A stretch of 64,000 nt of DNA from positions 4,270 through 68,269 of the forward strand of contig DUPV01000054.1 of the NCBI GenBank assembly GCA_012838135.1, given 5' to 3'. Position numbers and translations under genes: made by a program. The stretch comes from Clostridiaceae bacterium (lineage in GTDB: Bacteria > Bacillota > Clostridia > Saccharofermentanales > DTU023). Positions within the stretch are counted from its first letter, which is position 1, and the number at the start of each line of letters is the position of its first letter. The notes beneath the pieces were generated by a model. That model did not search any database. It saw only the letters and a list, made by a program, of their open reading frames with translations, and was not told where the DNA came from. Shown piece by piece: positions 1-54,597 of the stretch.

Positions 1-326
1 AGCTGAAGATGAAACCGCTGGTGGTCGCCTCCGCTTGTTTGTCCAGAGGCAGCGAGGAGGCGATCGCAAATCTGCTGAAAGCAGGTGAAGATCCGTATGT
101 GATACATGCCTGTGAGAGGGAGCCGATGGAAGAAGCTCTAAAAACGCTTCGTCCCAGGTTTTATGTGGGACATGCTCCGCATGAAAAAGTTTCCGCCCTT
201 GGAATTCGACATATAGGCTGTTTTATGGCTGAGCCGGAACATTTGGGTTTTCGTTCGATTGACAACTTCCTCCTGCGGCTCGAAAGTGCTGCGATGCAGA
301 CACCTGCAGAAAAGGGGTGTGATTAG
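1..326 (+). CDS. C-terminal fragment of a probable nitrogenase component-1-like (NifD/K/E/N family) oxidoreductase subunit; 5' end lies outside the window
   Basis: The ORF is open to the left window edge (frame from nt 3). Its TAG stop at 324-326 lies one nt before the GTG of the next, recognisably NifD/K-like ORF. The call rests on this tight pairing and shared GC-rich composition, not on a motif I can name in the fragment. Confidence 0.35.
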   Translation, partial: LKMKPLVVASACLSRGSEEAIANLLKAGEDPYVIHACEREPMEEALKTLRPRFYVGHAPHEKVSALGIRHIGCFMAEPEHLGFRSIDNFLLRLESAAMQTPAEKGCD

Positions 327-327
327 C

Positions 328-1482
328 GTGCCTTTGTATAAGACTCTCCCCCCGCCTTCCGAGCGAATGGGTATGCTTTGGGCTTTATCCGGAGTCAGAG
401 ATATAGCTGTCATCGATTATGGCCCGGAGGGGACACTTGCATATTTCTATCATTCTTTGGCTCATTTAGGCACAAGTCTTAAAAACCGCATGTACACGCT
501 GGGTACAAAAGAGGATGAAATCATTTTTGGGAACAGCAATCGTCTTTTCTCGGCAATTGAAGGAATAGCGGACCGGTTTAAGCCCGAAGCGATATTTGTC
601 TCGCAGGCACCCGTATCGGAGATTATAGGAGATGACCTTGAGAGCCTCTGCAAATCTGCAGAGAAAAAAAGCGGCATAGCGGTCGTCCTTCTTCCGAACT
701 GCGGTCTGAAGATAGGTGCGGAAAAAGGGATCAGATATGTGCTGAACCTGCTGACTCAAATGTTTGCTGTGGAAAGCATGGAAAAAGATAATACGCTCCG
801 ATGCAATTTGCTTGGAAGCTGCTGCGATGAATATGGGTTTTATCAGGATGCGGAAGAGATATCCCGCATGATGGAAAGCTATTTTCAGATGAGTGTAAAC
901 TGCGTCTTTCCGAGCGACTGCAGTGTAGAGAATATCAGATCTATGAGCAGGGCGGATATCAATCTGGTTTTACGGGAAGAAGCACTGGATTCGGCGATCT
1001 TGTTGGAAGAAAGATTCGGCATACCATATGTTTGCGGCAGACCGTATGGACCTGCAGATATCAAAAGATGGGCAAATGAGATAGGAGAATTCATAAAGCG
1101 TAGTCCGTCCGGCAGCTTGGATGAAGAGCTCAATTCGGCTTGGGTGGAAATAAAAGAGCTGAGCTTTCTCAGAGGAAAGCGCGCTTATATATGCGGAAGC
1201 GCAGAGACAGCGAAGGGGCTGACAAACTTATTAAAAGGTTTGGATATGGAAGCCGAATGTCATATCAATACTGAAGACAGGGATATAGCAACATTTTCTT
1301 CGGATATATCTGATTATGATTATGTCTTGGCAGACGAGTTTACCATAGATAAGTTTCAAAAGCAATCATCTGTGAATAGCATCCGCATAGCAAATCCTGT
1401 GAAAAAAATCGATGGACCCCGATTAGGTTATTGTGGAATCCACGGCCTTATTGCCCTGGTCAATATGTTAAAAAAACAATAA
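328..1482 (+). CDS. nitrogenase component-1-type oxidoreductase subunit (NifD/K/E/N - BchN/B family), non-canonical
   Basis: GTG at 328 is preceded by AAAGGGGTG. Family backbone motifs are present: YGPEGT (cf. HGPxGC), KEDEIIFGNSNRL (cf. EKDIVFGG..L), VSEIIGDDLESL (cf. IGLIGDDIES) and ERFGIPYV. Two Cys positions used by NifD for cluster ligation are Thr and Ala here. Confidence 0.6.
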   Translation: MPLYKTLPPPSERMGMLWALSGVRDIAVIDYGPEGTLAYFYHSLAHLGTSLKNRMYTLGTKEDEIIFGNSNRLFSAIEGIADRFKPEAIFVSQAPVSEIIGDDLESLCKSAEKKSGIAVVLLPNCGLKIGAEKGIRYVLNLLTQMFAVESMEKDNTLRCNLLGSCCDEYGFYQDAEEISRMMESYFQMSVNCVFPSDCSVENIRSMSRADINLVLREEALDSAILLEERFGIPYVCGRPYGPADIKRWANEIGEFIKRSPSGSLDEELNSAWVEIKELSFLRGKRAYICGSAETAKGLTNLLKGLDMEAECHINTEDRDIATFSSDISDYDYVLADEFTIDKFQKQSSVNSIRIANPVKKIDGPRLGYCGIHGLIALVNMLKKQ

Positions 1483-1509
1483 AAAACATTAAAGAAGGGA
1501 AGATTCAAA

Positions 1510-2619
1510 ATGAAAAAAAAGTTAGCTTTGATACTTGTTATCTGTATGATGATGGTAGCATTGTTTTCCGGTTGCGGAAACAAGGATAGTGAAACCCCGT
1601 CTTCGGTAAATACTGAACAGGAAAAACCGAATACACGAATTGTTACAGATTTCACGGGCAAAGAAATTGAACTGCCCCCACCGGACGAGATTAAAAGAGT
1701 TCTTATCGCCTCTCCCCCTGTTCCCTCGACTTATTTTGATGTGATGAAGGGTTCGGCAGGGTTGGTCGGTGCAACGGAACGCGCGTTTACCTGGGGAAAC
1801 TCGAAGGTTATGGATCTCATCGTTCCGAACTGGCGAGAAATCAACACTACATGGATAAAGGGCAACACCTGTAATGTAGAGGAAATTCTGGCTTTGGAAC
1901 CGGATTTGGTAATCGTCTATGGAAAGGAGCAGGCGGAAGGATTGGATGTTTTGCCGATGCCTGTTCTCAACTTCCTGGAAAGCAGCAAGGATAACGAGCA
2001 GACTACGATCAATCGCGATAAATTTATGCGAGAGATATTCGGAGTCGATAGCGATACATCTTTGGAAGAAGAATGGAAAACTGCAAATGAAAAGGTTGCA
2101 CAATGCTTATCTGCCGTTGAGGGGCAGCCACAGCCAAAAGCACTCATGATTTTCAACAATACCGGAGAAAAGATCACAGTCCGCGGTTCCAACACATACG
2201 GTGATTCATGGATAACAAAAAGCGGAATGATCAATGTCGCCGCAGAAGTTGAGGGCGACGGTGTCGAGGTGACCATGGAGCAGATCTACCAATGGAATCC
2301 GGATATCATTATTGTCCACGGCGGATTACCTGAAACGGATTACCTGACCAATTCCATCAGTGGACAGGACTGGTCTCAGGTAGAAGCATTCAAGAACGGC
2401 CGTATCTATTATACACCGAAAGGAATTTCCGCCTGGACCGCACCGAATGCCGACTCTCCTATGATGGCCCAGTGGATGGTTATGAGAGCTTATCCGGACA
2501 CATATCCCGAAGAGGAGTTTGTTTCAAATCTGATTTCTTATTACCAACGCAGGTACGGTGTCGAAATTACAGAAGACTTGGCAGAGGAAATTATCTGGCC
2601 GCACGGACCGGCAGAATAA
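1510..2619 (+). CDS. ABC importer substrate-binding lipoprotein, FecB/BtuF-type (metal-chelate / siderophore / corrinoid class)
   Basis: RBS GAAGGGAAG upstream. Signal peptide with lipobox LFSG-C (Cys22). EPDLVIVYG and NPDIIIVHG-type motifs are typical of Peripla_BP_2 proteins. It sits directly upstream of a FecCD permease and ATPase. Confidence 0.8.
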   Translation: MKKKLALILVICMMMVALFSGCGNKDSETPSSVNTEQEKPNTRIVTDFTGKEIELPPPDEIKRVLIASPPVPSTYFDVMKGSAGLVGATERAFTWGNSKVMDLIVPNWREINTTWIKGNTCNVEEILALEPDLVIVYGKEQAEGLDVLPMPVLNFLESSKDNEQTTINRDKFMREIFGVDSDTSLEEEWKTANEKVAQCLSAVEGQPQPKALMIFNNTGEKITVRGSNTYGDSWITKSGMINVAAEVEGDGVEVTMEQIYQWNPDIIIVHGGLPETDYLTNSISGQDWSQVEAFKNGRIYYTPKGISAWTAPNADSPMMAQWMVMRAYPDTYPEEEFVSNLISYYQRRYGVEITEDLAEEIIWPHGPAE

Positions 2620-2633
2620 AGCATAAATATAGA

Positions 2634-2669
2634 GGATGACCGGAAGAATTAGCTTCTTCTTGGTCATCC
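2634..2669 (+). promoter_or_regulatory. intercistronic stem-loop between SBP and permease genes
   Basis: GGATGACC (2634-2641) pairs with GGTCATCC (2662-2669), and an inner GAAGA/TCTTC pairing extends the stem. No T-run follows, so it is more likely an mRNA-stabilising or processing hairpin than a terminator. Confidence 0.35.
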
Positions 2670-2706
2670 GTTGTAAAGTGTAGGCTGTTCGGTGGAGGAG
2701 ATTTGG

Positions 2707-3732
2707 GTGAACGAAAAAAGAAAGTATTATTTGCTTCTTTTAATTATACTTATAGCCGGTGTGCTTATCGGCTTTTCCGGACTTTTTTTGGGCCGTTTTT
2801 TAGTTCCGCCCAAGGAGGTTCTGAATACAATAGCCGACTCTCTGAATTCTTATATTTTTGGGATTGGGACAAAGCCGGAAGGTATCTACAGAGTTGTTGT
2901 GATGAACATAAGGCTCCCTCGAATACTTTTGAACATCATAGTGGGTGCAAGTTTAGCTGTCGCAGGCACAGCATATCAGGGAATTTTTTGCAATCAGCTT
3001 GTAAGTCCGGATGTATTAGGGGTCAGCGCAGGCGCGGGGTTCGGGGCTTCACTCGGAATTATACTTACTTCCTCGGTGGGAACTGTAACGACATCGCTTG
3101 CTTTAGCATTCGGTCTACTCAGTGTCTTTTTGACTTTTACCATTTCAAAGTTGGGTAAAACTTCTTCTCCCCTAACTCTTGTTCTTTCCGGAATGATTGT
3201 ATCATCAGTCTTCAACGCTTTGATTTCTCTCATGAAATTCATTGCCGATGTTGAAGATCAGCTTCCGGTCATTACATTTTGGCTTTTGGGAAGCTTTTCA
3301 AACACCACTTATGCAGATGTCATTTCGATCATAGTTCCGGTAACGGTCGGAATACTTGTTATCATGGCAATGCGATGGAAGCTGAACATTTTATCCCTTG
3401 GAGATGAGGAGGCGCATACTCTGGGGGTTGATGCCAAAAGAGTAAGGACAATAATCATCGTTGCAGCGACGGTCATTACGGCGGCATGTGTTACGGTAAC
3501 CGGCATTATTACATGGGTTGGTCTTGTACTGCCGAATATCTGCAGGATTTTAATCGGCTCCGACCACCGATATTTGTTGCCACTGTCATGTGTGTCAGGC
3601 AGTATTTTTATGATAATCGTTGATCTGATTGCCAGAACATTGACGGCGGCTGAGATTCCGATCGGCGTTTTAACTGCCTTGGTCGGCGCACCTTTCTTTG
3701 CATTCTCTTTCTATCAGATGGAGAGGAATTAA
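2707..3732 (+). CDS. FecCD/BtuC-family ABC transporter permease
   Basis: Multi-TM protein with the typical FecCD sequence character (RLPRILL.., GASLAVAG, LGDEEA..LG, GxIxWVGLVxP). The GTG at 2707 lies 6 nt after GGAGGAG, so the ORF-track start at 2692 falls inside the RBS. Confidence 0.85.
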   Translation: MNEKRKYYLLLLIILIAGVLIGFSGLFLGRFLVPPKEVLNTIADSLNSYIFGIGTKPEGIYRVVVMNIRLPRILLNIIVGASLAVAGTAYQGIFCNQLVSPDVLGVSAGAGFGASLGIILTSSVGTVTTSLALAFGLLSVFLTFTISKLGKTSSPLTLVLSGMIVSSVFNALISLMKFIADVEDQLPVITFWLLGSFSNTTYADVISIIVPVTVGILVIMAMRWKLNILSLGDEEAHTLGVDAKRVRTIIIVAATVITAACVTVTGIITWVGLVLPNICRILIGSDHRYLLPLSCVSGSIFMIIVDLIARTLTAAEIPIGVLTALVGAPFFAFSFYQMERN

Positions 3733-3734
3733 CC

Positions 3735-4523
3735 ATGGTCGTAGAAGTAATAAATGGCAGCTTCCGTTATGAAAAAAATACTCCATTGCTTGAAAACATT
3801 TCGTTCAAGGTTGAACAAGGAAAAGTTCTTGCCGTCGTAGGACCGAACGGGAGCGGGAAAACAACTCTTCTTAAATGTCTTCTGGGTATCCTTGAATGGA
3901 ACCGGGGTGCAACACATATTGATGGTAAAAAAGCGTACAAAACCGAGCATTACATGGAAATTGGATATGTGCCTCAGGCATATAATATGTCGTTTCCCTA
4001 CAGAGTGGGCGAAATGGTATTGATGGGGTGTAATAAGCAGTTGTCCGGATTAAGTGTCCCATCCAAAGCCGATATAAAAAGGGCGGATGATGCTATGAAA
4101 ATGGTGGGAATCTTCGATTTGGATTTGAAAGACCGACTATGTACAAAAATAAGCGGGGGACAGCTTCAGATGGTTTTTATTGCGCGTGCTTTGGCCGGAT
4201 CCCCTAAAATGCTTGTCATGGATGAGCCCGAATCGCATCTGGATTTAAAGAACCAGTATTCGATCCTCAGGATGATTAAAAGGCTGGTCAGGGAGAACAA
4301 TATGTCCTTTATAATCAACACACATTACCCGGATCACGCTCTTCGACTGGCAGATGATTGTTTAATTATATATTCCGGAAAATGGATTCATGGCCCTGTG
4401 AGAGATATTCTAACGGCGGAGACTTTAAAGACCTGTTTTGGCGTAAATGCGAAACCGATAAAAATAAAATCAAATCGCGGCGTCGATTTCGACTCTATTG
4501 TGGTCATCGAAGATCTTGAATAA
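3735..4523 (+). CDS. ABC transporter ATP-binding protein (FecE/BtuD-like)
   Basis: Walker A GPNGSGKTT, signature ISGGQLQM, Walker B LVMDEP. Starts 2 nt after the permease stop. Confidence 0.9.
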   Translation: MVVEVINGSFRYEKNTPLLENISFKVEQGKVLAVVGPNGSGKTTLLKCLLGILEWNRGATHIDGKKAYKTEHYMEIGYVPQAYNMSFPYRVGEMVLMGCNKQLSGLSVPSKADIKRADDAMKMVGIFDLDLKDRLCTKISGGQLQMVFIARALAGSPKMLVMDEPESHLDLKNQYSILRMIKRLVRENNMSFIINTHYPDHALRLADDCLIIYSGKWIHGPVRDILTAETLKTCFGVNAKPIKIKSNRGVDFDSIVVIEDLE

Positions 4524-4680
4524 AACGCCTCGCCCTCTACCTTGCTACTGTCTGTAGCAACAACCCTGATTCCGAAAGCCCTAGTGCGACTATCCATCGC
4601 TCTGTTTCCTCAGCATCCGTAAGGTCCTTTTTATTGAGTACGTATATCCGCTCCTTCTCAGGGGGAGCGAGGATTACATT

Positions 4681-5505
4681 CTAATCCGCCCAATCACCGA
4701 CACCGTTCCATATTGAGGATAATTGACTGCACAGCACAGGGTAACGCTCTGTTACAGTAAAAAAGACATCCTGCATGGCTTTCATGCCGTGTGCATTATA
4801 GAGTTCTTTACCTAAGTTTCTTATATAGTCTCGATTCTTTTCGAGAGGCGTACCACCCAAAACAGCGGTGCCGCACATGGCAGAAAGATCATTAACCGCC
4901 ATCGTGACATGTTCCTGATAATCAAACATGCTTACACTTACTTGCCGTTTCAGATGGATGCCCGGCAATACAGCCTTGGAGTAATCTGTTCCCATCGGAA
5001 ATCCTTTGATTTTAATATTCGGGCTTGCAGCCACAACAACACTTGCCCAAAGATTTGGGTTAATCTCAAAATCGCGTCCTCGATCGTGCAGAATGCCAAA
5101 ATCGAAGCCGTGATATTCCAAGCCTTCACTGCCGATCTTTTTGGCAAAATAAGTATGACTAACTGTATTGTTTGCAAGTATATCCATGACAAGCATATAC
5201 AAAGGCTTATTATGGGAAACTAAATGCTCATGGATTGTGACTATGCAATCCGCAAGCGTAGTGGATATTTTTGCGCTTTGGTCTGCCGATACTTGTAAAG
5301 TGAAAAATTCTTGAAATCCGCCATATGTAATTGTTCGACCGTTGACGACTGAAACCACTCCCATAGTTTTAGGATGGAAGTAATATTGCATCTCCGGCGT
5401 ATGTTCTCCGGGGATGTTTACAACTTCTTGACCACATTGCTTACACCTTAAAGTATAATGCTCATTGCCTGCTAATGCTTGATTTTTCTTTTTGAACAGG
5501 TCCAT
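4681..5505 (-). CDS. hypothetical protein (274 aa), no family recognised
   Basis: ATG at 5505 is preceded by GGAGGATATATT. The ORF-track start at 5571 lacks an RBS. There is an N-terminal CxxC (CKQCG) but no second Cys pair. It is convergent with the ABC operon. Confidence 0.6.
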   Translation of the reverse strand: MDLFKKKNQALAGNEHYTLRCKQCGQEVVNIPGEHTPEMQYYFHPKTMGVVSVVNGRTITYGGFQEFFTLQVSADQSAKISTTLADCIVTIHEHLVSHNKPLYMLVMDILANNTVSHTYFAKKIGSEGLEYHGFDFGILHDRGRDFEINPNLWASVVVAASPNIKIKGFPMGTDYSKAVLPGIHLKRQVSVSMFDYQEHVTMAVNDLSAMCGTAVLGGTPLEKNRDYIRNLGKELYNAHGMKAMQDVFFTVTERYPVLCSQLSSIWNGVGDWAD

Positions 5506-5718
5506 AATATATCCTCCATTCTTTTTTATATAGATTTTTATAATTCCACGATAATCCCATAAAAAATACAATCTTAATCTCTGTCAAGCATACATATATA
5601 CAAAAAATTTTCAAATCTTTTCTGAAAATTCTCTACAACTTGTAATGCTCTTCAGATACATAAATGTTTTTAGCTAAATATAGTAATTATTATTTACCTC
5701 AAGATTAACTCTAAAATC

Positions 5719-5732: not shown

Positions 5733-5847
5733 TGCATTGAATATTCATTCATTTATGCTAAACATATCCGGAGTATATAAATCAGTATTAGTTCCTTATT
5801 AAAATAAAAAATATTATTCGTCAAATTAATCGTTGGAAAGGAATATT

Positions 5848-8118
5848 ATGAGCAATAATTTTACAGAAGAAAGAAAAAAAGCATGGCAAGGTTTTAAACT
5901 TGATAATTGGGCTGAAACAATCGATACCAGAAATTTTATCCAAAAAAATTATCAACCGTATACCGGAACAGATTCTTTTTTGGAGGAACCTACTGAAAAT
6001 ACAACATTCTTATGGAATAAAGTCAATGATATGATTCAGGATGAAGTGCGTAACAAGACCGTTACTGTTGATTTGTCTCGCTTCAGCGGCATTGACAAAT
6101 TTGATGCCGGTTACATAGATAAGGACAAAGAATTAATCGTAGGTTTACAGACTGATGAGCCCATGAAAAGAATGATGAATCCGTATGGCGGTTTCAGAAT
6201 GGTTAAAGGCTCCTTAAAAGCTTACAATTTAGAAATTGATCCGAAAATGGAAGAACATTTTACTGAATTCCGTAAAACCCATAATGACGGTGTATTTGAT
6301 GCTTATACCGATGAAATGCGCACAGTCAGATCTGTCGGTTTATTGACCGGATTGCCTGATGCTTATGGTCGCGGCAGAATTATCGGTGATTATCGTCGAG
6401 TTGCTCTATATGGTATTGACTATTTAATTCAAGAACGTATCAAAGATAAAAAGAATCTGACCGGCGATGCAACTGAAGAAATCATTCGTAAACGCGAAGA
6501 ATTCTCCGAGCAAATTCGTGCCTTGCAAGCCATGAAATCAATGGCAGCAAAATACGGCTTTGATATCGGTCGTCCTGCTTATAATGCACAAGAGGCAATT
6601 CAATGGCTCTACTTCGGATATTTAGCCGCAATCAAAGAAAATAACGGCGCAGCTATGAGTATAGGCAAGAACACAACTTTCTTGGATATTTATATTCAAC
6701 GTGATTTAGATAGCGGAACATTAACCGAAAAAAAAGCCCAGGAATTAATTGATCAATTTGTAATCAAGTTGCGTTTGGTTCGTCATTTGAGAACGCCTGA
6801 ATATGATGAATTATTCGCCGGTGATCCGACCTGGGTTACGGAAAGTATCGGCGGTATGGGTGAAGATGGTCGTACTCTGGTAACCAAAACCGCTTTCCGT
6901 TTCTTACATACGTTAACGAATTTAGATACATCGCCTGAGCCCAATATGACTGTATTATGGTCAAATGATTTGCCGCGCGGATTTAAAGATTATTGTGCCA
7001 AAATGAGTATCCGAACTGATTCAATTCAATATGAAAATGATGATTTGCTCCGTCCGATTTATGGCGATGACTGTGCAATCGCTTGCTGTGTATCGGCAAT
7101 GCAAGTCGGTAAACAAATGCAATTTTTCGGTGCCAGAGCGAATTTAGGTAAAGCTTTGCTCTATGCTCTGAACGGTGGTATTGATGAAATCAAAAGAGAT
7201 AAACACGGTAATTTAATCAAGGTAATTGATGGAATCGAGAAAAATACAGAAGAAATTTTAACCTATGATAAAGTTATGGTCGATTTCAAAAAAGTAATGG
7301 ACAAATTAGCAAAAATTTATGTGAATACGATGAACACCATTCATTACATGCATGATAAATATGCTTATGAGGCCGGCCAACTGGCATTACATGATCCGCA
7401 AGTTCACATCTTTATGGCATTTGGCATTGCCGGTATTTCAATTGTTGCCGACTCCCTATCCGCTATTAAATACGCTGCAGTTCGTCCGATTCGTGATGAA
7501 AACGGAATTACCGTTGATTTTGAAATCGAAGGAGATTTCCCGAAATTCGGTAATGATGATGATCGTGTTGATAACATTGCTCAAGACGTTTCGCAGTACT
7601 TCATGGATGCCTTGAAAAAAACACCTGCTTATCGCAATGCAGAACATACATTATCCTTATTGACCATTACCTCAAATGTAACTTACGGCAAGAAAACAGG
7701 TGCTACACCTGACGGTCGTAAAAAAGGTGAACCGTTTGCTCCCGGTGCAAATCCTATGCATGGCAGAGATGAGTCCGGCGCTTTAGCATCCCTGAATTCA
7801 GTCGCTAAATTAAAATATCAAGGATGCTGCCAAGACGGTATTTCCAATACATTCTCGATCATTCCGAGTTCACTCGGGAAAAATAGTCAGGAAAGAGTTA
7901 ATAACTTGGTAAATATTTTAGACGGTTATTTCAAACAAGATGCCTTCCATATTAATGTCAACGTTTTGGAAAGAGCATTATTGATTGATGCCATGAATCA
8001 TCCTGAAAAATATCCGAACCTTACGATTCGCGTTTCCGGTTATGCCGTACGATTCAATCAATTGGACCGGGAACAGCAAGAAGATGTTCTTGCCAGAACA
8101 TTCCATGAAGCTTTATAA
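5848..8118 (+). CDS. pflB: pyruvate formate-lyase (formate C-acetyltransferase)
   Basis: Glycyl-radical motif RVSGYAVRF near the C-terminus and active-site Cys-Cys (IACCVSAM). The roughly 756-aa length is typical. ATG at 5848 follows GGAAAGGA. Confidence 0.95.
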
Positions 8119-8136
8119 TCTTTACGAATGAATCTT

Positions 8137-8172
8137 AAAAAGTGACTGCCTCCAAGAGGCATTCACTTTTTT
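8137..8172 (+). terminator. rho-independent terminator/attenuator between pflB and pflA
   Basis: AAAAAGTGACTGCCTC / GAGGCATTCACTTTTT hairpin with one mismatch, followed by a T-run ending at 8172. It begins 19 nt after the pflB stop. Confidence 0.65.
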
Positions 8173-8270
8173 CAGTATTTCTCAAAGTCGGAGGTCTGAA
8201 TACCAGAATTTGTACAGTTCAAGATTCTGGACAGAAACCGTGTTTTAAAACAGTAAGGGAATTATTGACA

Positions 8271-9782
8271 ATGAATAAGCAAGAACAACAAATTACGGGA
8301 CAATTACATTCAATTGAATCAATGGGTTTAGTTGACGGTCCGGGTATTCGTACCATCTTCTTTTTACAAGGTTGCCCTCTGCGTTGTTTATATTGTCATA
8401 ATCCTGACACCCAAAATTTTGATGGCGGAAGAATTGTAACTCCGTCTGAAATTTTAAAATCAGCTAATCGCTATAAACCATACCAAGGTGAGGATGGCGG
8501 AATCACGTTTTCCGGTGGGGAACCTCTATTACAAGGTGAATTTTTAGCTGAATCTGTAAGACTTTTAAAAGAAAATGATTTCAACATCTGTATTGATACC
8601 TCAGGTTACGGTCAAAAGAAATATTATTCACAAATTTTTCCTTATGTTGATACGATTCTTCTAGACATTAAAGCCTTCTCTGAACAAGCTTATCTTGATA
8701 TGTGTTCTGTTCAACAAAAACCGTTGATCGATTTTATGAACGAGCTTGAGAATTATGGTTTTCACGGACAAATTTGGGTTCGCCATGTTATGGTACCCGG
8801 TTATACTGATAATACAAAATCTATGCAACAATTAATCCAAACTATCGAACCGATTCAACATTTGGTCGAGCGATTGGAAATATTGCCTTATCATACAATG
8901 GGCAAAGAAAAGTACAAAGAATTAAACATGCCCTATTTATTGGAAAATGTTGATCCTATGGATAAAGAAAAAGCAAAAGAATTTGAAGTTTATGCTAATG
9001 TTCTGTTAGCAGAACAAATGAGCAAGGACCGCATTGATCTAATAGAAAAGCAAGAAGTTGAAAGTTCTGCCCTCGAGAGCAATGTCACCCTTGAAGAATA
9101 TAACAAGATCATCGGATGTTTCTCCAATTTACCATTGTTACAACATATTGATCCGGATATTTTAAATGATATTCAACATAATTTGATTATCAAAAAATTA
9201 GAAAAAGAGGAAATTTTATTTCACAGCGGGGATGATCCTAACTATATGTACATCATATATTCCGGTGCTATTAAAATATTTAATGTATTGCCTAATATGA
9301 AAGAACAGATTTTCTACATTTACCGAAAAGATTCTTTTGTCGGAGGTCACAATCTATTATCTGACAGCAAATATTGGTATACAGGTGAAGCATTGCTGGA
9401 CTCGATTGTCATTGCTATCCCCTCGAAAATTTTCAATACCTATTTCTCCAATAAAAAACCTGTATTGAAAGAAATTTTAAGTCAAAGTTTTGCGAGAATT
9501 CGCTGGGCAGAAGATTTGATTAACCGTTTGGCTACCATCAATTCATCAGTTAAAACAGCCGGTCTAATCCTGCGTTTGGCAGAAAATTTCGGAATAAATA
9601 AGAATGGTCAAATTCAAATTCTAATGGAATTTGATCGTACCGAGATGAGCAATTTTTCAGGTTTAACCAGAGATTCTTTAACCAGAAAACTTGGTGAATT
9701 TGAAGAACTCGGCTATATTCACATCGAAAATGAAATGTTGACCATTCTCAATCTTGATGCTTTAGAATCTTATTTAGATTAA
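8271..9782 (+). CDS. pflA: pyruvate formate-lyase activating enzyme (radical SAM) fused to a C-terminal Crp/Fnr-family regulator (cNMP-binding-like barrel + HTH)
   Basis: Residues 1-245 form the activase: GxxDGPGIR, radical-SAM CPLRCLYC, GGEPLL and LPYHxxG. Residues 246-280 are a linker. Residues 281-503 form the regulator: FSNLPLLQHIDPDIL..., EEILFHSGD, YIIYSGAIKIF and the HTH RTEMSNFSGLTRDSLTRKLGEFEELGYI. The frame is continuous with no stop. Confidence 0.85.
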   Translation: MNKQEQQITGQLHSIESMGLVDGPGIRTIFFLQGCPLRCLYCHNPDTQNFDGGRIVTPSEILKSANRYKPYQGEDGGITFSGGEPLLQGEFLAESVRLLKENDFNICIDTSGYGQKKYYSQIFPYVDTILLDIKAFSEQAYLDMCSVQQKPLIDFMNELENYGFHGQIWVRHVMVPGYTDNTKSMQQLIQTIEPIQHLVERLEILPYHTMGKEKYKELNMPYLLENVDPMDKEKAKEFEVYANVLLAEQMSKDRIDLIEKQEVESSALESNVTLEEYNKIIGCFSNLPLLQHIDPDILNDIQHNLIIKKLEKEEILFHSGDDPNYMYIIYSGAIKIFNVLPNMKEQIFYIYRKDSFVGGHNLLSDSKYWYTGEALLDSIVIAIPSKIFNTYFSNKKPVLKEILSQSFARIRWAEDLINRLATINSSVKTAGLILRLAENFGINKNGQIQILMEFDRTEMSNFSGLTRDSLTRKLGEFEELGYIHIENEMLTILNLDALESYLD

Positions 9783-9976
9783 TTGTTTTGCTCTGCTTAT
9801 TTTAAAATAAGTAGCACTACTATTATTTTATAAAAGGGCAGTAAGTTTGTCTTACAACTTTATTAGTTGTTTTTGACATTTATTCATCTTAAAATTAAGA
9901 ATATTAATTTATAAATTTACATGAATTTAAGTTAATGCTTATATATTTTTTCTAAAGTAAATTGAGGACAAAAAAC

Positions 9977-52083: not shown

Positions 52084-54189
52084 TCAACCAAATAGTGAAA
52101 ATGCAAGAAAAATGGATGCCATCAAGGAAGAGAGCAAAGACACCACTGTGATTTGCGTATTGATTGAAGGTCCGGCTGTATCCTTAAACGGATCACCGAC
52201 TGTATCACCGACAACCGCCGCTTTATGGGCTTCAGAACCTTTTCCTCCGCAATTACCCGCCTCTACATACTTCTTAGCATTATCCCAGAGACCGCCTGCA
52301 TTTGACATAAAAAGTGAAAGCAATAAACCGCTAACAATATTGCCGGTCAGGAATCCGCCAATCGCCGAAACGCCTCCGGTAAAACCGACGACAATAGTTG
52401 CTACTATAGCAAATAAACCGGCAGGAATGAGTTCTCGCAATGCTCCGTCAGTCGCTATGGAAATACATTTATCATATTCAGGAACAACACCTTCCTTGCC
52501 TTCTTGCAGTCCTTCAATTTCATCAAACTGGCGATGAATTTCCTCAACCATACGGACGGCATTCCTGTCTACCCCTCGCATTAACATGGCTGAAAAGACT
52601 GCCGGAACGGCAGCACCGACAATTAAGCCGAAAAAGACTAAAGGATTGATGATATCAAATCCTTCTAAAAGGTTTTCACCTGCCTTAACAATCCCCTGTT
52701 CGACTGCCGCCACATTAACCTCGGTCATGTAAGCACCTAACATGGAAATGACCGTCAAACCCGCAGCGCCGATTGCAAATCCTTTTGTAATGGCTTTGAC
52801 CGTATTACCGGCACTATCCAATTCATCCGTTATTTCCAAAGCATCATCCCCCAAATCCGCCATTTCCACCAGACCGCGTGCATTATCAACTATTGGTCCA
52901 TAAGCATCATTGGAAATAATCATACCCACAATTGACAGCATACCCACGGCAGACATTGCAATGCCATACATGGCGTAACCATCACCCAACGGACTACATA
53001 AAGTGTATGCCAGTAAAGCTGCAACCGCAATTCCCAGCATAGCGGGAAGCACACTGATAAAGGAATAAGAAATGCCCGAAAGAATGGTAAAGGCCGGACC
53101 TGATTTAGACATGTTGGCTACAGTACGAACTGGCGGACGTTCATCATTCGTAAAATAATCAGTTGTCAGACCAATTATTAAACCTACAGCTAACCCGACA
53201 GCTGCAGCTCCCCATACCCTCCAGGAGAAATTGAACAGAGCAGTCAAACCTGCAGTCAAAATAAGATACACAACTGTGGTCACATAAGTACTGGAATTCA
53301 ATACTTTTGTCGGATTTGCACCCTCTTTCAAACGAGCGGTGCCTACGCCGATGATAGATGCCAACAGACCTACCGTCGCATAACAAAACACCGTCATGAC
53401 ATTTAAATTACCGCCTGCCTGTTGGTCTAGTGATATTCCCATAACCAACGCAGCTGCCATAGCTGCAACATTGGAGTCAAACAAATCTGCACCCATACCA
53501 GCAACATCACCGACATTATCACCTACATTATCGGCAATGACAGCCGGATTGCGCGGATCGTCCTCGGGCATTCCCAAGGTAACTTTACCAACCAGATCGG
53601 CACTGATATCCGCCGTCTTGGTAAAAATACCACCGCCTGCTTTAGCAAACAATGCCATTGAGCTGGCTCCAAAACTAAATCCCAGCAAGGTCAACGCATC
53701 ACCGGTCAGAGCATAAATTCCACATACGCCCAGCAGACTGGCACCGACTACTGCCATACCCATAACCGCTCCTCCGCGAAAACCGCTGAGAAAAGACAGA
53801 CTGATTCCATGCTTAGCGGCAGCTTCAGCTGCACGAACATTGGCTCGTGTCGCAACTGCAATGCCAATTTTTCCTGCTAATCCGGAAAAAACTGTGCCGG
53901 AAATATAGGCTAAAGCCATAGAAATATTAGTCAGAACACTTCCCTGCCAAATCGGCTTGGGCAGAAACAATAAAATTAAACTAGCAACTGCCAAAGAAAA
54001 ATATGTCAAATAGCGATACTCCCGTTTAAGAAAAGTGTTAGATCCGTCACGAATCAACTCCGACAATTCAAGCGCTCGTTTATTCTCAACCTTGATACCA
54101 ACCAACCAGCGATAGAGCAGCCAAGCTACAATAAAAGCCAGTATACCAACCGCAAATGAAACTATAAGAATAACAGTTAATTGATCCAT
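52084..54189 (-). CDS. hppA: membrane-bound proton/sodium-translocating pyrophosphatase
   Basis: GGGIFTKAADI-like GGGIFTKTADI, DNVGDNVGD, and GDTVGDPFKDTAGPS. About 700 aa and multi-TM. ATG at 54189 follows AAAGGAG. Confidence 0.95.
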   Translation of the reverse strand: MDQLTVILIVSFAVGILAFIVAWLLYRWLVGIKVENKRALELSELIRDGSNTFLKREYRYLTYFSLAVASLILLFLPKPIWQGSVLTNISMALAYISGTVFSGLAGKIGIAVATRANVRAAEAAAKHGISLSFLSGFRGGAVMGMAVVGASLLGVCGIYALTGDALTLLGFSFGASSMALFAKAGGGIFTKTADISADLVGKVTLGMPEDDPRNPAVIADNVGDNVGDVAGMGADLFDSNVAAMAAALVMGISLDQQAGGNLNVMTVFCYATVGLLASIIGVGTARLKEGANPTKVLNSSTYVTTVVYLILTAGLTALFNFSWRVWGAAAVGLAVGLIIGLTTDYFTNDERPPVRTVANMSKSGPAFTILSGISYSFISVLPAMLGIAVAALLAYTLCSPLGDGYAMYGIAMSAVGMLSIVGMIISNDAYGPIVDNARGLVEMADLGDDALEITDELDSAGNTVKAITKGFAIGAAGLTVISMLGAYMTEVNVAAVEQGIVKAGENLLEGFDIINPLVFFGLIVGAAVPAVFSAMLMRGVDRNAVRMVEEIHRQFDEIEGLQEGKEGVVPEYDKCISIATDGALRELIPAGLFAIVATIVVGFTGGVSAIGGFLTGNIVSGLLLSLFMSNAGGLWDNAKKYVEAGNCGGKGSEAHKAAVVGDTVGDPFKDTAGPSINTQITVVSLLSSLMASIFLAFSLFG

Positions 54190-54597
54190 AGATCGCACTC
54201 CTTTCAGGGACAATAAATTCAATATTATCTTTTTACAACAATCAAACTATAAATCTGATACTCATTTTTGGAACAACTATAATAAAAATCTAAATACTCC
54301 ATTTTAGAATAACCAGAATATAAATCTGCTGCCCTCTATTGTGACAATATTATTTTGTTTTTTCAATGAATATTAAGTAAATTTTTACAAATCCTTCACA
54401 AGTAATTAATCTGTTTAGAATCTTCTTGAGCAAAGATACATTATTTAATTTTATATACATTTTACTAACTTTCCACAGCTCTCCTTAATTGCATGAAAAA
54501 ATGAACTCAATGCGGAATAGAATTCAGCCAATGGAAAGGATCTCCAGCTTCATGTTAATATACTTACATCTATTAATTGGGGAGGCCTTTCCGGCAC

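Follow-up and report, generated by a model that had tools for sequence, protein, structure and literature searches.

The 64,000-nucleotide stretch of DNA analysed here, called the window below (Clostridiaceae bacterium, contig DUPV01000054.1, positions 4,270 to 68,269), opens with five of the six genes of an operon that joins a nitrogenase-like enzyme to a type II metal-chelate ATP-binding cassette (ABC) importer, in the order nflH-nflD-nflK, substrate-binding protein (SBP), permease, ATPase. Comparison of related loci argues with high confidence for a functional enzyme-importer unit. As the best joint explanation we lean towards an ATP-driven, nitrogenase-like reduction of the cargo of the importer, which would be haem in the main clade of the family and, most likely, a compound related to B12 in the clade that includes the window. 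That the substrate is a metal tetrapyrrole appears to us, from the sequence comparisons, a conclusion of moderate confidence; which compound the operon of the window itself handles is uncertain. An earlier reading of this DNA, made from the letters alone (the sequence-only reading), had proposed that uptake of a metal chelate or tetrapyrrole is coupled to its reductive processing, and at the level of comparative genomics this idea finds support. The class of substrate that it named is backed indirectly, in the main clade by IsdE-like SBPs, Fur boxes and HugZ-like or NEAT genes, and in the window's clade by cobalamin riboswitches.

The coupling is carried by the conservation of the gene neighbourhood. 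A word-indexed protein search returned only 11 relatives, the closest non-identical one at 45% identity, and an exhaustive protein search gave 80 cluster representatives at E<=1e-30. Genomes were scanned, one per species, with a query alignment of seven sequences, and the loci (designated by L numbers) were annotated with hidden Markov models (HMMs) built from the window proteins; linkage was scored when a FecCD permease gene lay on the same strand at most 7 kilobases (kb) from the K-like gene. Among the 71 loci returned, nearly all from Clostridia and other Bacillota, 60 show the linkage, so that the conserved association of orthologues with Peripla_BP_2, FecCD and ABC genes, which the sequence-only reading had made a test of its proposal, is borne out. 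Nine of the 11 other loci are cut by contig ends, and the only true exceptions with complete flanks are L064 and L070. Three gene orders occur (H-D-K-SBP-permease-ATPase, H-SBP-permease-ATPase-D-K and SBP-permease-ATPase-H-D-K), with further permutations in L005 and L006. The second, which places the importer inside the enzyme operon, is the commonest (52 loci including variants), and the first is found in the window, L004, L085, L087, L088 and two Acetobacterium genomes. Given that the linkage is kept across these reshuffled orders and across D and K proteins of ~28% identity, functional coupling can be argued. A neighbour-joining tree divides the family, whose members include Clostridium argentinense and Alkaliphilus transvaalensis, into two groups, the main clade and the window's clade; the latter is a separate, rare subclade with the H-D-K-importer order and a different binding protein. 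Within this subclade all six products co-vary, as illustrated by the identities between L085 and the window (H 63%, D 47%, K 36%, SBP 56%, permease 63%, ATPase 50%). A distant member of the family, L006, carries at positions 1-4819 four tandem Peripla_BP_2 paralogues followed by a methyltransferase, Band_7, permease and ATPase genes and then D-K-H.

The five genes that the sequence-only reading had listed on one strand between 1 and 4523 are all present at the coordinates it gave. The window enters the operon inside nflD, of which it holds the last 107 codons (1..326, forward strand, in the frame of base 3); the full gene encodes an alpha (NifD/NifE/BchN-type) subunit of 441 amino acids. Then comes nflK (328..1482, forward), which encodes a beta (NifK/NifN/BchB-type) subunit of 384 amino acids without conserved cluster cysteines and starts with GTG; its homologues likewise open with MPLYK. 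The importer consists of a lipoprotein SBP of what we call the W class (1510..2619, forward; Peripla_BP_2, 64 bits; lipobox LFSGC), a FecCD/BtuC-type permease (2692..3732, forward, starting at GTG 2692 or ATG 2707; FecCD, 281 bits) and an ATPase (3735..4523, forward; ABC_tran, 101 bits). The intergenic distances of 1, 27, 87 and 2 nucleotides (nt) given earlier are reproduced with the permease start at ATG 2707, as called on L003, and the SBP-permease gap shrinks to 72 nt if translation begins at GTG 2692. Among NCBIfam models the permease matches BtuC best (NF007081, 234.9 bits, below the cut-off of 461); the best matches of the ATPase are the haem ABC ATPase PRK13548 (140.8 bits) and the F420-0 and corrinoid ABC ATPases, none of which reaches its cut-off. 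An intrinsic terminator was searched for 3' of the ATPase gene and not found.

The remainder of the operon could be read from L002 and L003, contigs of identical DNA that reach further to the left (window coordinate = L003 coordinate - 3971, the window starting at L003 3972, 1000 nt into nflD). The fragment at 3-326 has by itself no match in Pfam or NCBIfam; its DNA matches, at 100% identity, the 3' end of the 441-amino-acid gene on L002 and L003, and for that gene a PF00148 hit is recorded. Directly left of the window lies nflH (L003 2170/2236-2982), so that the NifH-like gene predicted just beyond the left edge is indeed there, and the NifH-like, D-like and K-like genes are contiguous on these contigs. 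The product of nflH belongs to Fer4_NifH and has the Walker A motif GKGGIGKS as well as both [4Fe-4S] cysteines, in GVGCAGRG and VVCGGF. Its closest matches are the Fe protein of MAR (5e-76) and C. pasteurianum NifH (7e-74), the NifH/MAR range extending to 1e-72, and BchL follows at only 7e-46.

The ligands for metal clusters tell what kind of enzyme this would be. The earlier assignment of 328-1482 to the NifD/K family holds (Pfam Oxidored_nitro, E=9e-49, 166.8 bits against a cut-off of 28.6), and the motifs YGPEGT, KEDEIIFGNSNRL, VSEIIGDDLESL and ERFGIPYV were all found in its translation. The AlphaFold model of NflK (predicted local distance difference test score, pLDDT, 83.5; predicted template modelling score, pTM, 0.85) has NifN, NifK and BchB as its best fold matches; by Foldseek the match to NifN reaches E=2e-22, and the top TM-score is that to BchB (0.86, root-mean-square deviation 3.3). 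The sequence-only reading had compared the protein by eye with NifD and noted Thr and Ala in place of two cysteines, which a HMMER alignment to Clostridium pasteurianum NifD confirmed. The complete subunit is of the beta (K/N/B) type and the truncated upstream gene encodes the alpha (D/E) type with the conserved cysteines. Across 28 K-like sequences no Cys is conserved, and the NifK ligand positions read YGPxGT and SxVSxIIGxD. In the alignment of the alpha family (24 sequences) C38, C63 and C123 are invariant and C159 nearly so, all of them encoded upstream of the window. A search with the D-family profile aligns C38, C63 and C123 with the cluster cysteines of NifE and NifD; at the position of NifD Cys275, a ligand of the iron-molybdenum cofactor (FeMo-co), the profile has Thr-Asp, and the alignment did not settle the position of His442. 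The statement that the protein is not a P-cluster or FeMo-co scaffold subunit thus stands, the beta subunit having no conserved cysteine and the alpha subunit Asp or Thr at the Cys275 position. Since the D-like subunit keeps three cysteines, the K-like subunit none, and the FeMo-co cysteine is missing, the enzyme would be of the simple [4Fe-4S] type and not a nitrogenase; the sequences indicate a cluster held by three cysteines of one subunit, which is the pattern of DPOR.

None of the NCBIfam models for NifD/K/E/N, BchN/B/Y/Z and CfbD comes near its cut-off with the K-like protein (nifE 102.5 bits against 505, nifD 56.3 against 653, nifK 30.6 against 427, nifN 27.9 against 327, BchB 84.8 against 490, BchN 28.6 against 420, CfbD TIGR03282 34.6 against 268). 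DPOR, the protochlorophyllide reductase (BchL/BchN-BchB, or ChlL/N/B; Group V), resembles the present system in having an ATP-dependent Fe protein and an alpha2beta2 core, in drawing three cluster cysteines from alpha and none from beta, and in lacking FeMo-co ligands and NifB. The alpha cluster cysteines are spaced here by 25 and 60 residues; those of BchN we take to be C26, C51 and C112, spaced by 25 and 61. It also differs. The GPxG-X position, taken to correspond to BchB Asp36, which supplies the fourth cluster ligand in DPOR and COR, holds Thr here and His in some members, the BchB and BchN scores lie far below the cut-offs of the DPOR and COR models, and NflH resembles NifH and MarH much more than it does BchL. 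Moreover, the operon is fused to an importer and not to a biosynthetic pathway, and its hosts are non-phototrophic Clostridia. CfbCD (Group IV-B) is likewise [4Fe-4S]-only and independent of NifB, and performs a multi-electron reduction of a metallated tetrapyrrole; it differs in being biosynthetic and unlinked to import, as well as in its TIGR03282 score. Membership of CfbCD was rejected on the grounds that CfbD is a homodimer of one subunit type and two distinct adjacent subunit types are encoded here. NifE is the best sequence match of both subunits (E=5e-18 and 1.5e-13; 3e-45 with the D-family profile), and the alpha cluster cysteines of NifEN align with those of the D-like family. The cysteine that binds the L-cluster is missing, however, there is no nif context, and the nifE score falls short as given above. 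Matches to MarD and MarK (structures 9d9u and 9fmg; E=1.7e-10 and 4.3e-7) are weaker than those to NifE.

Membership of MAR, ISR or Nfa (Groups IV-C, IV-F and IV-A) was also rejected, the cysteine pattern being unsuitable and the radical S-adenosylmethionine (SAM) 'B' gene absent: in 78 loci, followed to a distance of 4 kb from the cluster, neither radical SAM nor NifB-like genes recur, and none occurs on L003. Neither do nifB, nifE or nifN recur near loci of the family. The Group VI nitrogen fixation-like (NFL) proteins, paralogues of Elusimicrobia that Meheust and colleagues are said to have described in 2020, reportedly have an NflH that is sister to Group V and ~40% identical to NifH, with many radical SAM genes in the vicinity. 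Compared by that description, the NflH of this family, far closer to NifH than to BchL, and the lack of radical SAM neighbours argue against membership.

The importer belongs to the same general type as IsdEF/HupDGC and BtuFCD, with a Peripla_BP_2 lipoprotein, a FecCD permease and an ATPase. We know of no characterised type II importer whose genes share an operon with those of a nitrogenase-like enzyme. In the main clade the SBPs come close to haem binders: that of L068 scores 290.2 bits against the IsdE model TIGR03659, nearly at the equivalog cut-off of 298.65, and among solved structures it is closest to Listeria Lmo2184 (2e-51) and to IsdE of S. aureus (6e-47). Met78 and His229, which we take to be the axial haem ligands of IsdE, are both kept in main-clade binding proteins, including that of L068. 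A third set of loci, from rumen and gut genomes, has more divergent and weakly IsdE-like binding proteins. Regulation points to iron. Fur-box-like 19-mers, called with at most four mismatches, are present in 23 of 60 upstream regions of the operon against 7 of 313 other intergenic windows from the same loci (Fisher p=8e-15, a value that overstates independence given that these loci are phylogenetically related), and most of the sites lie 15-50 nt before the first gene. An AraC regulator diverges from the operon in 37 main-clade loci, and 31 have a Flavodoxin_3 gene, mostly directly adjoining the operon; flavodoxin is the expected electron donor when iron is scarce. A HugZ/HutZ-like gene lies directly 3' of the operon in 14 loci (TIGR04109, E=8e-39, below the cut-off), and genes for NEAT/IsdC-like surface proteins were seen in four to five loci. 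Riboswitches, sought in 13 loci that are mostly of the main clade, were not found. Haem is the simplest reading for the main clade, given these ties to haem uptake under iron starvation and the flavodoxin.

The window's clade is regulated differently. Directly upstream of nflH in L008 (Acetobacterium carbinolicum), L015 (an Acetobacterium metagenome-assembled genome), L087 and L088 there is a cobalamin riboswitch scoring 100-107 bits against a cut-off of 31.5, so that it is present in four of the four relatives of the clade whose upstream DNA is intact. The W-class transporter is also found behind the riboswitch where the enzyme is missing, in L084, which has it intact, and in L086, which retains a 36-amino-acid NifH remnant. 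In L085 three cobalamin riboswitches are packed into 2.7 kb 3' of the operon (7167-9832), preceding, in order, two short MetE-like fragments, a URO-D-family gene, and a TonB receptor gene with cbiC and cbiD. BtuFCD is usually encoded behind a cobalamin riboswitch; in this clade orthologous operons or transporters have one upstream in L008, L015, L084, L086, L087 and L088, and the window's own copy has none. Fur boxes (the best sites have 8-9 mismatches) and HugZ-like, NEAT, flavodoxin and AraC genes were not found in the window's clade. Its W-class binding proteins share 41-64% identity with each other and ~22% with that of L068; a scan of metagenomes with their alignment returned four loci.

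Two further genes accompany the W-class transporter. A class I SAM methyltransferase of the UbiE/Methyltransf_11 type is encoded 3' of it in L008 (14115-15255), L015, L082, L084, L086, L087 and L088; it is kept even in L084 and L086, where the enzyme genes are missing, and neither the window nor L085 has it. In L008 and L086 the next gene after the methyltransferase encodes a MarR-like protein, which is weakly BilQ-like; L015, L082 and L088 have a similar small gene in this place.

We envisage the following mechanism. NflH would spend ATP and pass low-potential electrons to an NflD2K2 core that holds a single [4Fe-4S] cluster per alpha-beta pair, between the subunits, an electron path deduced by analogy with DPOR, COR and CfbCD. 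The core would then reduce the molecule delivered by the co-encoded importer. In the main clade haem might be imported under iron starvation, and reduction of its ring could free the iron without oxygen. ChuW/HutW already offer anaerobes an oxygen-independent route to haem iron, by radical methylation and ring opening, and belong to an unrelated family of radical SAM proteins; they are a functional analogue only. In the window's clade the cargo would most likely be a corrinoid or a precursor of one, or else a cobalt chelate, because the orthologous operons would be switched off by cobalamin in all four cases with intact upstream DNA. More tentatively, and with somewhat less than even confidence, we suggest that these systems form an unrecognised class of nitrogenase-like enzymes that process imported metal tetrapyrroles instead of making a cofactor. 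They would reduce the haem ring in gut and soil Clostridia and so free its iron without oxygen; in the window's clade, at times of B12 scarcity, they would reduce an imported corrinoid, a precursor of it or a cobalt chelate.

Several observations weigh against this interpretation, besides the kinship of the loci behind the Fur statistic. The evidence is comparative throughout, and the D and K proteins of the two clades share ~28% identity, so function may not transfer from one to the other. The region upstream of the window's own operon, read from L003, has neither a riboswitch nor a Fur box; a search of L003 1470-2300 against Rfam, with E up to 1, gave a tRNA-Leu as the sole match. Cobalamin riboswitches also govern B12-independent bypass enzymes, and control by B12 is therefore no proof of a corrinoid substrate. 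The binding protein adds further doubt. Unlike the main-clade SBPs, that of the window lies far below the IsdE cut-off (42.7 bits against 298.65), and it is below that of BtuF as well (NF002894, 15.4 bits against 234); the haem-ligand positions of IsdE are not conserved in the W-class alignment. Its best solved relative is 4ovk (E=1e-35), a structure in which the ligand is not assigned. In its AlphaFold model (pLDDT 90.6) the nearest structures are 4ovk, H. pylori CeuE with Ni-(His)2, 4hn9, 4pag, MolA and YiuA, and the 50 best fold matches do not include BtuF. The modelled fold is thus nearest to binders of small metal complexes, and a non-tetrapyrrole chelate of cobalt or nickel is a possible cargo.

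This last point leads to a rival that we regard as serious, namely that the modelled SBP serves a small cobalt chelate. The importer would bring in a non-tetrapyrrole complex of cobalt, or else of nickel or iron (an inert Co(III) chelate would be one case), and reduction would free the metal for B12 synthesis. The likeness of the fold to CeuE, MolA and YiuA rather than BtuF and the score of 15 bits with the BtuF model fit such a role, as do the riboswitches that precede the operons of the clade, given that cobalamin riboswitches often govern cobalt uptake. We still consider it unlikely. A D2K2 core with a substrate pocket seems more than a metal-centred reduction requires, the sister clade is tied to haem by IsdE-like SBPs with kept haem ligands, and tetrapyrroles are the substrates of most NifB-independent nitrogenase-like enzymes whose function is known (DPOR, COR, CfbCD; PMC13474568). 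The window's operon could instead act on haem for anaerobic iron acquisition, as proposed for the main clade, with which it shares one enzyme family and the same cysteine pattern; the haem ABC ATPase as best match of the ATPase (140.8 bits) and the weak match of the SBP to the C-lobe of IsdE (42.7 bits) lean the same way. This appears rather less probable again, considering that neither Fur box nor HugZ-like, flavodoxin or AraC genes were found in the clade, that the haem ligands of IsdE are not conserved in the W class, and that the four relatives with intact upstream DNA are all regulated by B12 and not by iron.

An older idea is that NflDK is a scaffold like NifEN, on which a metal cofactor would be assembled or matured from metal delivered by the transporter, as Dos Santos et al. 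(2012) speculated (PMC3464626). NifE being the top sequence match of both subunits speaks for it; the absence of the L-cluster cysteine and of any recurrent NifB or radical SAM partner speaks against it, type II importers carry chelates and not free metal, and the haem accessory genes of the main clade fit the processing of a substrate better. We give it little weight, and marginally less to the possibility of a B12-independent bypass enzyme (compare MetE and NrdD) acting on a small imported non-chelate, for instance an organosulfur compound of the kind that MAR and ISR use. Bypass enzymes are well known to be under riboswitch control, the MetE-like fragments near the operon in L085 each have a riboswitch of their own, and NflH is closest to the Fe protein of MAR. 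Peripla_BP_2/FecCD importers are, however, dedicated to metal chelates, haem and B12, and the transporter is under riboswitch control even when it stands alone; MAR, ISR and Nfa come with a radical SAM 'B' gene and both subunits of MAR have P-cluster cysteines, neither feature being present here. Finally, a divergent but genuine N2-fixing nitrogenase is effectively refuted by the ligands. NflH is very similar to true NifH (E ~1e-72) and the alpha P-cluster cysteines of Groups I-III are kept, but the beta P-cluster cysteines and Cys275 are absent, the scores with the NifD/K/E/N equivalogs fall far below their cut-offs, and nifB, nifE and nifN do not recur nearby.

The superfamily and the principle by which it works are familiar, and the bare linkage between enzyme and transporter has been known since 2012; the import coupling, both regulons and the substrates implied are uncharacterised. 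Dos Santos et al. (2012) described NifEN-like pairs in Clostridium botulinum (CLM_0808/0809) and Alkaliphilus oremlandii (Clos_0313/0314), with three conserved P-cluster cysteines in the E-like and none in the N-like protein, beside nifH and an ABC-transporter ATPase gene (PMC3464626). They noted that some nitrogenase-like genes lie with ABC transporters and 'possibly' couple metal transport to cofactor assembly, a guess beyond which no function is given, and the haem/Fur and cobalamin-riboswitch contexts are not reported there (PMC3464626). All described features of that clade (cysteines, nifH, ABC genes, Firmicutes) recur here, the match being one by description. The 2026 Chemical Reviews survey lists Nfa, CfbCD, MAR, ISR, DPOR and COR as the only systems with a function and does not mention an importer-linked family; in the same survey, most NifB-independent enzymes of known function reduce tetrapyrrole rings (DPOR, COR, CfbCD), with the exception of ISR, which acts with a radical SAM partner (PMC13474568). 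Within the library searched we found no paper that connects a nitrogenase-like enzyme with FecCD, with the degradation of haem or with cobalamin riboswitches, and no characterised pathway for a nitrogenase-like enzyme with a chelate importer.

That review also names the assignment of functions to the many uncharacterised nitrogenase-like systems as a main challenge (PMC13474568). If our interpretation is right, salvage or catabolism of imported tetrapyrroles would be added to the roles of nitrogenase relatives, and gut anaerobes would be able to obtain iron from haem without oxygen. Mise et al. (2021; PMC8597730) showed an abundance of 'pseudo-nifH' genes in Clostridia and in anaerobic metagenomes, and the importer-linked family probably contributes to them. 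A function could then be given to many of the clostridial 'pseudo-nifH' genes that inflate nifH counts in anaerobic metagenomes, and a large share of the non-diazotrophic nifH signal in gut and sediment metagenomes might be explained. Culturable hosts exist (Acetobacterium carbinolicum DSM 2925, with the nflH, nflD and nflK orthologues at NZ_CP173357.1 1,787,513-1,790,731, Paraclostridium, Romboutsia and Clostridium argentinense), and the comparative evidence offers testable substrates, which are haem in the main clade and, in the window's clade, a compound related to B12.

The DNA left of the window has its own peculiarities. On L003 (2016-2236), a near-consensus sigma-70-like promoter (TTGACA-17-TACAAT) precedes a leader that measures ~185 nt, contains two hairpins and matches no Rfam family, and the likely start of nflH is a TTG behind the ribosome-binding site GGGAGAGGGGG. 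The window's copy of the operon has either lost the riboswitch or never had one. The GC content of the operon (~45%, range 42-49%) is above that of the rest of the window (~35%, range 32-39%), which suggests that it was acquired horizontally. Further left, two tRNA-Leu(CAG) genes (L003 2-79 and 1804-1890), matching at ~91% of aligned positions, flank an extracytoplasmic function (ECF) sigma factor gene and a gene for 278 amino acids, a layout that looks island-like. A copy of the tRNA-Leu 3' end, as an island boundary, was sought inside the window and none was found; the whole 64-kb window holds no tRNA gene and no Rfam family at threshold.

Right of the operon, an open reading frame of 296 amino acids (4681-5571, reverse strand), with a CxxC near its N-terminus and also present on L003, lies before the pyruvate formate-lyase (PFL) gene and has no match in Pfam or NCBIfam. 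Directly after the PFL gene (5833-8118) comes a gene (8142-9782, forward) in which a PFL activating enzyme is fused to regulator domains: Radical_SAM and Fer4_12 occupy residues 64-225, and a cyclic-nucleotide-binding domain with a Crp-type helix-turn-helix residues 351-543, an unusual fusion of enzyme and regulator. A spike in composition at 52084-54222, with a local GC of 0.46 and a strong AT skew, is due to the gene of a membrane H+-pyrophosphatase (reverse strand, 744 bits). The remaining window encodes housekeeping functions, with topoisomerase IV/gyrase-like A and B subunits, RNase Y, RecN, exonuclease VII and a DinG-like helicase.

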